Below are positions 11,058 to 64,000 of a DNA stretch of 64,000 nt, piece by piece (positions within the stretch are counted from its first letter, which is position 1; the number at the start of each line of letters is the position of its first letter). The position numbers were made by a program, and so were the translations under genes. The notes below the pieces were generated by a model. That model saw only the letters and a list, made by a program, of their open reading frames with translations, ran no database searches and had not been told where the DNA came from. The DNA is from Isurus oxyrinchus (Eukaryota). The DNA is taken from the NCBI GenBank assembly GCA_026770705.1, contig JANJGN010000017.1:41664001-41728000 (forward strand), in the 5' to 3' direction.

Positions 11058-11295
11058 AGGTACAGGCAAAATATTTCAGATGCTGGAAATCTGAAACAAA
11101 AACACAAAATACTGGAAAAACTCAGCAGGTCTGGCAACATCTGTGGAGAGAAAGACAGAGTTAATGTTTCAAGTCCGTATGACCCTTCTTCATAGCTCTG
11201 AGGAAGAGTCATACAGACTCAAAACGTTAACTCTGCCTTTCTCTCCACAGATGCTGTCAGACTGGCTGAGTTTTTACAGCATTTTTTGTTTTTTC
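11058..11295. mobile_element. Fold-back (palindromic) PLE-derived element with degenerate hammerhead motifs
   Basis: Inverted arms centred on AGCT (11194-11197) with no spacer. The left arm carries an extra ~35-nt tail. TSD tccaaagggcacaa (11044-11057) / tccaaatggcacaa (11296-11309). Right-arm motif CTGAGGA-A-GAGTC-atcaa-type loop (ataca)-GACTC-AAAAC-GTTAAC. Confidence 0.8.
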
Positions 11296-12920
11296 TCCAA
11301 ATGGCACAATCTTGCTCTTTGTTTCAAAAGTTCTATATTTGATGCTTCACAGCATCACATGGCACAACTCTGTGGTAGCCTGCTATGTGAAGCAGAGGTG
11401 TCTCTGTTGACATGGCCAGGAGTAGATCCCAGGGTAGCGATAGGCATAGCAGAATGTCTCAGGCCATTGTTTCTCAGGAATTCTTTCCCTTATTTCAGTT
11501 ATGCAGTGTATTCAGAACCATAAAGGAACAATCAACATTCCCTCTTCATGGTACCATGTCAAAGTCATCAGTACGCAGGCATAATGCCGAAAGGTAATCG
11601 TGGAAAGATAAACAAAAATCACAAAAATATAGAGGCCTTTACAATAACTCCAAAGAAAACATGAACCGAAGTGCAGCCAAGGCACATAGAGGATGAAAAA
11701 CTAAGAGAGGTTTGTATTGTCTTCTTTTGCAAGGTCTTCTTGTGTGGGCATTGTCCCTAACATTCCAGTGTGTCCAATTTTTAAGGACAAGCCTGATGCT
11801 GAGGTTTGGTCTTGCCCAAAGTTGTGAAATCGGGGCACTAAAATATTGAAAAAGGATTTGTATATTTGAGTGAAGGTGCAGGCAGCAGTCAATTTCGCTT
11901 TTTACCCCAAATCATGGGGAGTAAAACAAAGACTGAATGCGATGTCCTGCTGTTAGATTGAGGCCTCACATTCTGAGCTTGAGGCCTGAAACAGTTAAGA
12001 TCTTGCATTTTTTTACTATTTTGTACATCAGCAGCACTTGCTTTAACAATGTTTTGAAATGTAAATTGACTGAATTATGAGCAGGTACAATTGAACAAGT
12101 GAGTTTCTTTAGTTATAAAACAGCAGCATGATAATATTGATTGCAAATACTTCCTTTTGCCTGCTTTTAGCTTTTGAGAGTACAAGAAAACGTTCAATGC
12201 TACTACACAGCAACACCTTACCAAAAGATTACATGGTGCAGGGAGCCCTGATGTTAGGGGACATATCAGGGAGGTTTTGCTGCAGGAACTCCAGTTATTT
12301 TCTATTTGTTTACCATGGCTCTCAGAAATGGTGCCATTCAGGTCACCCAGGGAAGTGCTGGAGATGTAGAATGTTTAGAAACACAAAACCATGAAAATGC
12401 AGAGAGGAACATACAACCTTTTAACACAAATCAGACATTGCTGGATTCACTAGTATTTTGGAATTGTATTGCTTAACAAATGGAATCAACATTTTTCAAC
12501 TGAAGAAAATCTGTGATAAGATCTTTATTGTGAAACTTTATTTTTTTTACTTGTCCTCATTTAGGCAGTTGTTTTACCTCTTAAGCTATCAGTTTAAAAG
12601 TTAATATATGCCCCCTATAATGTTATGTATATTTTCCTCATTATTAAAGCCATGCAGCTCCCTCAATGATTTCCCTCAAAGAATAATGTCTAGTTCTCCA
12701 TCAATAATGGGGCATCCATTTACTGCTTCTCACTACGCTATACAGTTTGATTATTGTTTTTTGAAGATTGGTGCAATGCCTTTGATTTTACTGTTTAAAA
12801 ATTTGTTTTTTCACCAGGCCCTTGCATTGGAAAGTAGTTCACAGTTATGTGGTAATATTTTTAAAAGGTATTTATCTTCTTTTTGAGTCCATTTTTACAC
12901 AGCTTCTCGAATGAGTCAGG

Positions 12921-23129: not shown

Positions 23130-24805
23130 TCTGTCCTTTAGCATCTAAAATGGTAGCTGCTGAGATAGTGAATACACTAGTTGTGATTCTCCCAAATTCC
23201 CTAGGTTCTAGAATGGTTCCAGCAGATTAGAAGTTCGCAAATGTAACATCGCTATTCAAAGGTGGAAAAAAAAAGGGTACCACAGGCCTATTAGCCTGAC
23301 ATCAGTCATTGGGAAAAAGCTGGAATCTATTATTAAGGAAGTCTCAACAACTTGGAATATCACTTATGATCAGACAAAGTCAGCATGGTTTTATGAAAGG
23401 GAAAACCTGTTTAACAAATTTATTTGAGGTTTTTGAGAATTTAACTGGTAGAATAGACAAAAGGAATCAGTACAAAAACAGAAACAGAAATACCTGGAAA
23501 AACTCAGCAGGTCTGCCAGCATCAGTGGAGGAGAGCACAGTTGATGTTTCGAGTCCTCATGACCCTTCAGCAGAACTATTCTGTCTGGATGGACAATCCA
23601 GCGGGGTGGGGGGGTGGGGGTAGAATGATTCCGGCAGGCTGGCCTAATAATGATATGCAGGTGTATTACAATGAGGTTCCCAACATCCAATGGCGGGAAA
23701 CGCGGGCCGCTGTTGGCAGGCTGAGTGGACGATTGCGAACTAGTTTCATACCGTTGCGAAACCGATCATGCCATATTGCCTGCTCATGCCACCAGACACG
23801 CCCGACGCTGTCAGGCATGGAAAATCCCTGCCAAAGAATAACTCCCACTTCACAATTTTAAAACTGAGATCATGGCCCACAGAAGGTGTTCTGCTGATTC
23901 AGAACAAGTGTAGTTCATAAATGGCAGAAAGATAACTGTGGCAACATTTTGGCAGTAGTATAGTAAAATATTTTTAACAAGATCTTTTAAGATGAAATCC
24001 ACTTTAAGATCACCTCTGTCAAATTGCGAGTTCAGCTCTGCTGGAGATAGCACATCCCATGTTAGGCAAATTCTACTTACTCAGAACAGAACTGTTCTGT
24101 TCAAGGGTCATGAGGACTCGAAGCGTCAACTGTGCTCTCCTCCGCTGATGCTGCCAGACCTGCTGAGTTTTTCCAGGTATTTCTGTTTCTGTTTTTGTTT
24201 TGGATTTCCAGCATCCACAGTTTTTTGCTTTTATAAAAGGAATCAGTAAATGTAGTATACTTTGATTTCCAAAAGGTATTCAGTAAGATGCCACAGAAAA
24301 GATTAATGTGCAGTTTAAGGGCTCATGGAGTTGGGGGTAATATATTAGCATGGATAGAGAATTGGTTAACTGACAGGAAGCAGAGAGTAGGGATAAACAG
24401 GTCATTTCAAGTTGGCAGGGTGTGATTAGTGGTGTGCTGCAAGGACTGCAAGACCTCAGCTATTTAAAATCTATATTAATGACTTAGACAGAGAGTAATA
24501 TATCTAAGTTTGCTGATGATACAAAGCTTGGTGGGAATGTAAGGACAAAAAGTGGGACTTGGGTGTACTTGTAGCAGGAACACAGGAAGTTAGCATGTAA
24601 GTATGAGAGCATTCCTGGTGTATGGTGCACAGTTTTCATTTCCATACTTAAGAAAGGATTTCCTTGCATTGGAGGAGGTAGACTGAAGGTTCACTAGATT
24701 GGTTTCTGGGAGTGTTGTCTTAAGGTGAGTGACTGGGTAAACTGGTCTTATAGTCTGGAGTTTTAGAATGAGAAGTATCTCATTGAAATATTTAAAATGT
24801 TGAAA
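23130..24805 (+). mobile_element. Decayed CR1 RT fragment, interrupted by the composite PLE insertion
   Basis: IRQSQHGFMKGKTCLTNL.E.FE before 23459 continues as ..DFQKVF.KMP..KFADDTK after 24248. Confidence 0.8.
23473..24234. mobile_element. Composite insertion: inverted PLE arms (23473-23585, 24083-24234) enclosing a copy (23586-24082) of 20808-21325
   Basis: Exact 14-bp TSD aaaaggaatcagta (23459-23472 / 24235-24248). The arms are reverse complements, and the right arm has the extra tail. The interior is ~96% identical to 20808-21325 by manual count, apart from a shorter G-run. Confidence 0.9.
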
Positions 24806-58113: not shown

Positions 58114-58338
<225 letters not shown>

Positions 58339-61669: not shown

Positions 61670-62182
61670 GAAGGCGGCCTTGACAAGGTGGACACCGAAA
61701 GCATGTTTCCTCTTGTGAGTGAGTCCAGAACTAGGGGGCACTGTTTTAAAATTAGGGGTCACCCTTTTAGGACAGAAACGAAGAGAAAATTTTTTTCTCA
61801 GAAGGTTGTGCGACTTTGGAATTCTCTGTCTCAGAAGGTGATAGAGGTGAAGCCACTGAATATTTTTAAGACAGAGGTAGATGGATTCTTATTGGATACG
61901 GACTTGAAACATCAACAGTATCCCTCTTCGCAGATGCTGTCAGACCTGCTGAGTCTTTCCAGGTATTTTTGTTTTTGTTCTAGACTTCCAGCATCCGCAG
62001 TATTTTGCTTTTATCTTAGATGGATTCTTGTTAGGTAAGGGAATCAAAGGTTATCGGGGTTAGATGGGAATGTGGAAATCGAAACACAGGAAGATCAGAC
62101 ATGATCTTATTGAATGGCGGAGCAGGCTTGAGGGGCTGAATGGTTTACTCCTGTTCCTATTTCTTATGTTCTTATGTTCCTA
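61670..62182 (+). mobile_element. Younger CR1 3' end, interrupted by a PLE arm
   Basis: LDKVD..MFPLV.ESRTRGH..FFSQKVVRLWNSL; tail ttcttatgttcttatgttc. Confidence 0.85.
61891..62016 (+). mobile_element. PLE-derived 5'-truncated arm
   Basis: gacttgaaacatcaac...cagatgctgtcagacctgctgag...ttccagcatccgcagtattttgcttttat. Exact 13-bp TSD tagatggattctt (61878-61890 / 62017-62029). Confidence 0.82.
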
Positions 62183-63101
62183 ACCTCTGAATTATTCAAG
62201 AAAGGCAGGAGAGAGAATATGGGAAATACAAGCCAGTGAGCCTGACATCAGCCATCAGTAACATTGGAATCTGTTATTAAGGAAGTGACAGCAGGGCACT
62301 TAGAAAATCATAATATGATTAAGACAGAGTCAGCATGGTTTTACGAAAGGGAAATTGTGTTTAAAAGTTTTGTTATTTTTTTGAGGATGTAACTAGCAGG
62401 CTAGATAAAGGGACCCTGGATGTAGCATATTTGGATTTTCAAAAGGCCTTTGATGTAGTGCCACCAAAAGGTTGTTGCTCAAGCTAAAGGCTCATGGAGT
62501 TGGGATAATGCAGTAAAATCAATAAGAAATTGGTTAAAGGACAGAAAACAGAGAGTAGAAATAAACATATCATTTTCAGTGGGCTGCTGCAAGGATACGT
62601 GCTCGGGCCTCAGCTATTTATAATTTATATTAGTGACTCAGGTGAAGGGATCAGGTGAAATCCATCTAACTTTGCTGACTACACAAAGCTAGGTAGGTGA
62701 CTAAGCTATGAGGAGGATACAAAGAGGCTGCAAAGGGACATAGACAAGCTAAGTGAGTGGTTAATAACATAAGAACATAAGAAATAGGAACAGGAGTAGA
62801 GCATTCAGCCCCTCGAGCCTGCTCCGCCATTCAATAAGAGCATAGCTGATCTTCTTGTGTTTCAATTTCCACATTCCCATCTAACCATTATAACCTTTGA
62901 TTCCCTTGCCTAACAAGAATCTATCTACCTCTACCTTAAAAATATTCAATGACCCCGCCTCCACCACCTTCTGAGACAGAGAATTCTAAAGTAGCACAAC
63001 CCTCTGAGAGACAAATGTTCTCCCCATCTCTGTCCTAAAAGGGTGACCCTTAATTTTAAAATAGTGCCCCCAAGTTCTGGACTCACCCACAAGAGGACAC
63101 A

Positions 63102-63413
63102 AAACAAAAACAGAATTACCTGGAAAAACTCAGCAGGTCTGGCAGCATCGGCGGAGAAGAAAAGAGTTGACGTTTCGAGTCTCCATGACCCTTCGACAGA
63201 ACTTGATTTCGAGTCCAGGAAAGAGTTGAAATATAACCAGCTTATATTTCAACTCTTTCCTGGACTCGAAATCAAGTTCTGTCGAAGGGTCATGGAGACT
63301 CGAAACGTCAACTCTTTTCTTCTCCGCCGATGCTGCCAGACCTGCTGAGTTTTTCCAGGTAATTCTGTTTTTTGTTTTGGATTTCCAGCATCCGCAGTTT
63401 TCTTTGTTTTCAA
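63102..63413. mobile_element. Young, near-perfect palindromic PLE-derived element
   Basis: Arms 63106-63236 and 63242-63372 are exact reverse complements around a 5-nt spacer (ccagc), giving near-identical ORF translations on both strands. The right arm has a ~35-nt tail. Exact 14-bp TSD cacaagaggacaca (63088-63101 / 63414-63427). Confidence 0.92.
63275..63313 (+). ncRNA. Minimal hammerhead-like motif with variant core (mirror copy on the - strand at ~63165-63203)
   Basis: AGTT-CTGTCGA-A-GGGTC-atgga-GACTC-GAAA-CG-TC-AACT: stem I AGTT/AACT, 5-bp stem II, palindromic ACGT stem III and a GUC cleavage triplet. A6 of CUGANGA is replaced by U. Confidence 0.65.
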
Positions 63414-64000
63414 CACAAGAGGACACATCCTTTCCACGTCCACCTTGTCAAGGCTGTTCAGGATCTTGTATTCTTCAATCAAATCACCCCTCACTCTTCT
63501 AAACTCTAGTGGAAACAAGCTCAGTCTGTCTAACCTTTCCTCATAAGACAACCCCTCATTCCAGGTATCAACCTAGTAAACCTCATTTTAAAGGCCTCCA
63601 ACGCATTTACATCCTCCCTTAAATAAGGAGACCAAAACTGCACACAGTATTCAAGGCGCGGTCTCACCAATGCCCTGTATAACTGAAGCATACCATCCTT
63701 ACTTTTATGTTCAATCCCTCTCATAATAAAGGATAGCATTTCATTAGCCTTCTTAATTAGTTGCTGTATCTGAATACTAACTTTTTGTGACTCGTACTAG
63801 AACACCCAGATCCCTCTGCACCTCAGAATTATGCAGCCGTTCTCCATTTAAATAATACTGTTTTTTTGTTCCTCCTGCCAAAGTGAACAACTTCACATTT
63901 CCCCACATTAAACTCCATTTGCCAGATCTTTAAACTCACTCAACCTCATGTCCTCTTCACAACATACTTTCTTACCTATCTTTGTGTCATCTGCAAATTT

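Follow-up and report, generated by a model that had tools for sequence, protein, structure and literature searches.

A head-to-head Penelope-like insertion in Isurus oxyrinchus and a putatively weakened hammerhead motif with U at core position 6 throughout its family

A stretch of 64,000 nucleotides from Isurus oxyrinchus, called the window here, contains at 63088-63427 a short head-to-head insertion of two 5'-truncated pseudo-LTR (pLTR) ends with no open reading frame between them. Its parent is a young autonomous Penelope-like retrotransposon (PLE) of the Neptune type, a clade assigned by motifs and not by a tree of the reverse transcriptase (RT). Each arm of the insertion carries a minimal hammerhead motif with U at core position 6, and this U6 is a fixed state of the family, not decay of this copy. 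Judged from sequence, the U6 ribozyme has probably been weakened and become dispensable for spread, with its fold kept.

The two 131-bp arms (63106-63236 and 63242-63372) are reverse complements without a single mismatch, and CCAGC stands between them. The sense arm (63242-63372, + strand) is a 5'-truncated pLTR that is matched genome-wide and also flanks intact 926-codon RT/GIY-YIG reading frames, while the inverted arm (63102-63236, - strand), likewise 5'-truncated and without a tail, complements it exactly from 63106 onward. A 41-nt tail is present on one side only (63373-63413, + strand) and reaches about 37 nt past the end point of the left arm, and the element is flanked by a 14-bp target site duplication (TSD), CACAAGAGGACACA, identical at 63088-63101 and 63414-63427. 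After in silico excision of the element, the flanks form one continuous repeat with an 86% match to a paralogue at 61677-61893, in which the target occurs as a single copy, and the TSD is therefore real. The exact inverted arms, one-sided tail and exact TSD described in the first-pass annotation are thus borne out by the coordinates and by the empty-site paralogue. Its 5-nt spacer was correct in that five bases lie between the arms, but these are no separate spacer: the head-to-head joint (63235-63241, + strand), which includes CCAGC, belongs to the element, whose upstream sequence extends further on the longer arm, the same bases being found upstream in family copies, and the arms overlap there by 2 nt. 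The host repeat that carries the insertion resembles, we assume, a CR1-type LINE fragment. The same kind of host repeat holds a solo older copy at 61878-62029, which is cut off in loop II and has a tail and a 13-bp TSD.

The insertion was also taken to be very young. It is recent, but zero differences over 131 bp bounds the divergence of the arms only to below about 2%, and the stronger evidence of youth is the letter at 63271, discussed below with the age of the subfamilies. The claim of a hammerhead-like motif on each strand holds as far as presence is concerned, with one motif at 63275-63313 on the + strand, identified by sequence and by covariation across 168 copies, and its mirror at 63165-63203 on the - strand (U6 at 63196, predicted cut site 63169), identified by motif scan and placed by the palindrome. 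The pair is not a special feature but a mechanical product of the palindromic arms.

The element is intronic, since exons lie on either side of it: an upstream exon for the F5/8 type C domain of a CPXM-type gene at 58174-58324 (+ strand), and a next exon about 27.4 kb beyond the window end, with M14 carboxypeptidase exons further on. This confirms its proposed location within a CPXM-type pre-mRNA, in a + strand gene that combines F5/8-C and M14 carboxypeptidase exons. The long perfect pre-mRNA hairpin that had been anticipated is indeed predicted by folding of the whole element (z = -37.6, with 0 of 100 shuffles equally stable) but is not special to this copy, since thousands of similar copies would form one too. 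Stem II is predicted to form with a probability of about 0 in the full hairpin, and with its arms paired and the motif buried this copy would not cleave in host pre-mRNA whatever its core. A miRNA precursor was considered and rejected, in that the Rfam matches to mir-2363 and MIR1888 scored 52-54 bits against thresholds of 72 and 90 and reflect perfect pairing.

In a search of the 4.98-Gb genome, the right arm showed 94-99% identity to 39 other scored places, and at the 29 other loci viewed the arm is joined on its upstream side to the 3' end of a reading frame (ORF) and, on the other side, runs into the beginning of the next ORF. Of 148 protein matches scored, about 56 by hand count fall within an open frame of 926 codons. 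This ORF matched the RVT_1 profile at 32.9 bits, above the cut-off, and the GIY-YIG profile at 19.9 bits (E 9e-4), below the cut-off of 22.6. A PDB sequence search with it returned no match. Its translation contains a DKG motif and, between RT and endonuclease (EN), a CX4CxxC linker; a CX2-5CxxC linker in this place is described as a Neptune hallmark (PMC8557442). Tandem ORF-pLTR arrays with a period of about 3.3 kb were found in loci L193-L198. The features of EN-bearing PLEs are all present, namely a single ORF with RT and C-terminal GIY-YIG, tandem arrays, and an inverted truncated copy with tail and TSD. The earlier assignment to PLEs is upheld by near-identical pLTRs that flank ORFs with RVT_1 and GIY-YIG matches genome-wide. 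The Neptune-clade PLEs of PMC8557442 share with this family a single ORF, DKG, RT, a Cys linker before a Cys-containing GIY-YIG domain, and a pLTR hammerhead, and the core here differs in carrying U at position 6. The family is present in contigs of run X15, while a search of run X21 for it gave no matches. On the strand opposite the PLE at locus L012 there is a 207-residue open frame that resembles, on our own assumption, the membrane-anchor end of a viral envelope protein.

The fold-back shape had been regarded as something special, but it is the published PLE layout and is common in this genome, and the palindrome itself is an ordinary PLE insertion. In 1.2 Mb of random DNA taken at fixed positions, 17 head-to-head pairs were counted among 67 young-type ends, a density that scales to tens of thousands genome-wide. 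Among 50 head-to-head pairs in fetched loci, the tail is on exactly one arm in 45 and the TSD measures 13-15 bp in 26, with a mode of 14. Inverted 5'-truncated pLTRs with a one-sided 30-40-bp tail and a TSD have been published as a PLE layout (PMC3846280, PMC8557442), and the tail was explained as the span between two RT start sites (PMC11167929). The same head-to-head arms, one-sided tail and TSD are described for Adineta vaga Pen2a (PMC3846280), in the scheme of Fig. 2 in PMC8557442 and for D. virilis Penelope (PMC2377424), EN-bearing systems in which the parent likewise has RT plus C-terminal GIY-YIG and forms tandem arrays. In contrast to EN-bearing PLE insertion units, this copy consists of two pLTR ends only and is ORF-less, and its TSD is 14 bp, against 8-10 bp in the A. 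vaga data given there.

A mechanism can be proposed in which the element's GIY-YIG endonuclease would have made a staggered cut that gave the 14-bp TSD, as suggested by published PLE biochemistry. Reverse transcription would then have started at two neighbouring internal sites, so that only one of the ends received a tail, and these short cDNA ends would have been joined head to head over the 2-nt overlap. The template for the second arm may have been a second RNA, or the first cDNA may have folded back on itself. The arms of a pair often share differences from the reference, three of which are shared in this copy, as is expected under a fold-back and a two-template origin alike.

Two other accounts of the palindrome were weighed. 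It would be an independent mobile unit, MITE-like or retrozyme-like and copied whole, only on a very improbable reading; its own TSD, its absence of coding capacity and its hammerhead motifs suit such a unit, but the joints vary among pairs (inner lengths 57 to 2,501 nt), the joint of this copy was shared with 0 of 29 other loci viewed, and retrozymes, as portrayed in the consulted part of bioRxiv 10.64898/2026.07.22.740005, are tandem direct repeats. A non-LTR retrozyme in particular was rejected, as it requires direct repeats in tandem, every one bearing a type I hammerhead, and the arms here are inverted with joints that vary between insertions. Hardly credible is a fold-back chimera of sequencing or assembly. 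The arms are perfect, and the exact locus, whose flanks are repeats, was spanned by no read or contig among the matches listed; but a chimera does not account for the TSD, the one-sided tail and the continuous host repeat across the site, many copies show the same layout with diverged arms, and independent raw Illumina reads of the related organism B also contain strand-switch joints near stem I.

Older copies in the window were also inspected. An inverted pair at 23459-24248 has a 14-bp TSD and 501 nt between its arms, a span that is captured or secondarily inserted DNA and includes a GC-rich repeat also seen near 20.9, 49.4 and 50.4 kb. An older pair of the A6 type at 11066-11302 is head-to-head and gapless with arms 82% complementary, so that the same layout is seen in an ancestral subfamily. 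The cores reported for the window were reread as first given, with CTGCTGA and CTGTTCA in the 23.5-kb arms and TGA(A/G)GA in the copies at 11, 12.9 and 52.8 kb.

The + strand motif consists of a 4-bp stem I (63275-63278 with 63310-63313), the core CUGUCGA at 63279-63285 with U6 at 63282, an extra A at 63286, a 5-bp stem II (63287-63291 with 63297-63301), GAAA at 63302-63305, the palindromic ACGU at 63305-63308, and a GUC site with the predicted cut after 63309. The canonical core C3 U4 G5 A6 N7 G8 A9 is not matched, position 6 being U. The stems, proposed for a covariation check, do covary across subfamilies in the 168 copies: two-sided stem II changes are found at pair 10.1-11.1 (G-C in 136 and A-U in 12 of 166) and at pair 10.2-11.2 (G-U in 76, A-U in 71 and G-C in 11 of 166), and the stem I pairs are formed in 137-155 of 164-165 copies. 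The minimal type I PLE hammerheads of PMC4209133 have the same short stem I, the extra nucleotide between 9 and 10.1, G10.1-C11.1, a palindromic 15.2-16.2 and a monomer without stem III. They have A6, whereas U6 is fixed here in about 75,000 exact copies, and U3-A8 is the only core variant reported in the portion of that paper at hand.

Computation of structure was of little help for the motif. An Rfam scan of the 64-kb window gave no hammerhead family match at E <= 1, and the motif, alone or in context, is predicted to fold no more stably than shuffled sequences (z -1.07 to +0.6). The minimum-energy fold of a dimer kept stem II and did not give the active dimer, and thermodynamic folding is therefore evidence neither for nor against activity. 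A permuted (type II) hammerhead that would use GGACTCGAAA in its upstream duplicate was also considered and dismissed purely by geometric reasoning.

In an exact motif search that left positions 6 and 7 free, position 6 was U in 74,858 of 76,649 matches (97.7%), C in 1,557, A in 141 and G in 93, the last by difference. All 34 motifs at 12 fetched loci that hold 18 intact 926-codon ORFs are U6, so that the suggestion of a recently active subfamily spreading with a non-canonical core was well founded. Of 36 fully paired motifs in the random 1.2 Mb, 33 carry U6 and two carry A6, and a broad motif search found A6 in 6,685 of 106,395 matches. Subfamilies were clustered on downstream columns from 168 copies, 92 of them random and 76 from pattern-selected loci. 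Two clusters are A6, at mean divergences of 14.8% (44 of 47 copies) and 6.4% (28 of 31), and two are U6, at 5.0% (29 of 32) and 2.7% (56 of 58). U6 is therefore derived and marks recent waves. The tabulation of subfamily consensuses by age that had been suggested thus places A6 in older copies (6-15% diverged) and U6 in younger ones (2-5%), with a non-canonical young consensus. A tree gave good support for the young clade (100/99) but does not show a single origin of U6, as it contains 13 changes, at least 6 of them forced by starred branches, from rows that included non-homologous flank.

Reads and contigs of organisms B and C were compared at 80% likeness, where A stays below 2% at position 6 among the rows listed, and U6 therefore likely predates their split. 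The letter at 63271 is shared by this copy and most copies beside intact ORFs and is replaced in about 96-99% of records of organism B, which dates the sub-wave to the window's own lineage; the letter marks a lineage-specific recent burst. A6 revertants stand at background, numbering 141 against 270 for a control change, U4 to A, and they lay on mixed backgrounds in 12 of 12 viewed. C6 is enriched on U7 backgrounds, with 88 of the first 100 matches listed by hand count, and also turns up in several of the intermediate upstream types, as would be seen if position 6 drifted. No report of this U6 core was found in the literature searched, and core-variant compilations or the supplements of PMC4209133 and PMC9901934 may record it; a measurement of A6U activity was likewise not found there.

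Other changes accompany the youngest subfamilies. At 63248-63272, two words that stand further downstream, TCAACTCTTT and the GGACTCGAAA named above, occur in them a second time as direct duplicates, a state reached via several intermediate upstream types. Pairing of this segment with the 5' half of the motif in a read-through RNA is predicted at 0.52-0.60; for the mid U6 group the value is 0.03. At 63356-63365 a splice-donor-like CAG/GTAATT follows an ATG-initiated short frame in young copies, and old copies have an acceptor-like pyrimidine tract ending in CAG just before the same ATG, a difference that possibly reflects a change in intron use. The 926-codon frame starts after a stop.

The 5' ends of copies point to a preferred start. 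In short copies they gather at the first base of stem I (63275), which lies 50-57 nt from the anchor on its upstream side; among ends at 10-69 nt, 16 of 33 young, 6 of 11 mid and 10 of 28 old ones fall in this cluster, and for older copies the peak may look too high because their upstream part has diverged from the references used. Of 23 short pairs, 15 have one arm that ends at 53-55 nt. This preferred start is common to A6 and U6 subfamilies. A TATA-like TTATATTT at 63242-63249 (+ strand), a putative core promoter, lies 33 nt upstream of the stem I start in this copy, and the distance is 30-33 nt in 203 of 207 copies measured. Transcription may therefore start at the first base of stem I, which would place the hammerhead at the capped 5' end; in D. 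virilis Penelope an internal promoter lies in the transcribed 5' region (PMC2377424). No copy 5' end was found at the cut site in 83 young, 29 mid and 40 old ends, and since such ends are absent from A6 subfamilies too, their absence does not separate active from inactive cores.

From the mid U6 to the young consensus, four of seven free positions changed against one of 31 constrained ones (Fisher p = 0.002). The free-position changes are N7, two in loop II and H17 (GUU to GUC), and the lone constrained change preserves its pair. The two consensuses are likewise identical over the 31 nt that follow the motif, so that the conservation is not hammerhead-specific. The family would thus keep the hammerhead fold under some selection, whether for slow or protein-assisted cleavage or for an overlapping promoter or protein-binding role, and restoring A6 would bring it no gain. 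A weakened core fits published work on position 6 and its neighbours: single mutants in the CUGA turn had low activity in deep mutagenesis (PMC9901934), and A6C cut Mg2+ activity more than 10,000-fold in one ribozyme (PMC7151607). Dispensability is in line with hammerhead mutants whose insertion in vitro was unaffected (PMC11167929). The role of the hammerhead in EN-bearing PLEs is described as unclear (PMC8557442). Another natural hammerhead that departs at position 6 and has an otherwise intact core is the A6C ribozyme of phage Bcep176 (PMC3088659, PMC7151607). That is a single phage example with C, slow in Mg2+, whereas the change here is to U in a mass-amplified vertebrate retroelement with a putative ribozyme.

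The preferred reading, a weakened and dispensable ribozyme, was weighed against one in which U6 is tolerated and the ribozyme still usefully cleaves in vivo through an element protein, a dimer or another metal ion, cleavage being part of the cycle. The rest of the core persists together with ACGU and the two stems, and the cleavage site turned GUC after U6 arose, a change that could be compensation for a still-useful ribozyme; the PLE hammerhead of the anole needs protein to cleave (PMC11167929), and the natural A6C variant works with Mn2+ (PMC7151607). Such retained function is nevertheless unlikely: the A6 revertants never expanded, C6 is common on several intermediate backgrounds as though position 6 drifts, the CUGA mutants cited above had low activity, and cleaved templates left no genomic footprint. 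It appears equally doubtful that the ribozyme has been fully dead since U6 and its sequence kept as an internal promoter or protein-binding overlap at the transcript start, where lost cleavage might spare a capped leader. That copies so often start where stem I begins, 30-33 nt past the TATA-like box, agrees with this, as do the D. virilis promoter and the very high copy numbers of the hammerhead-less Naiads (PMC8557442). But the post-U6 changes fell at hammerhead-free positions (N7, loop II and H17) with stem II still paired, a pattern not expected from a DNA promoter by itself, and the transcription start is a putative one.

A further and rather speculative extension of the weakened-ribozyme reading, which has little probability on its own, is that the change from A6 to U6 was itself selected: damped self-cleavage at the capped transcript start would have spared the mRNA, so that the lineage displaced its A6 ancestors and reached more than 75,000 copies, while the fold would have been kept for slow or protein-gated cutting. 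If this is true, the dated A6/U6/C6 subfamily series would serve, with its dozens of intact ORFs, as a natural experiment on the purpose of the PLE hammerhead. Searches based on CUGANGA miss the most abundant hammerhead-like motif of this genome. A fixed change at a normally invariant base, together with intact ORFs and dated A6 ancestors, would allow matched constructs that tell whether cleavage helps, hurts or is neutral for jumping.
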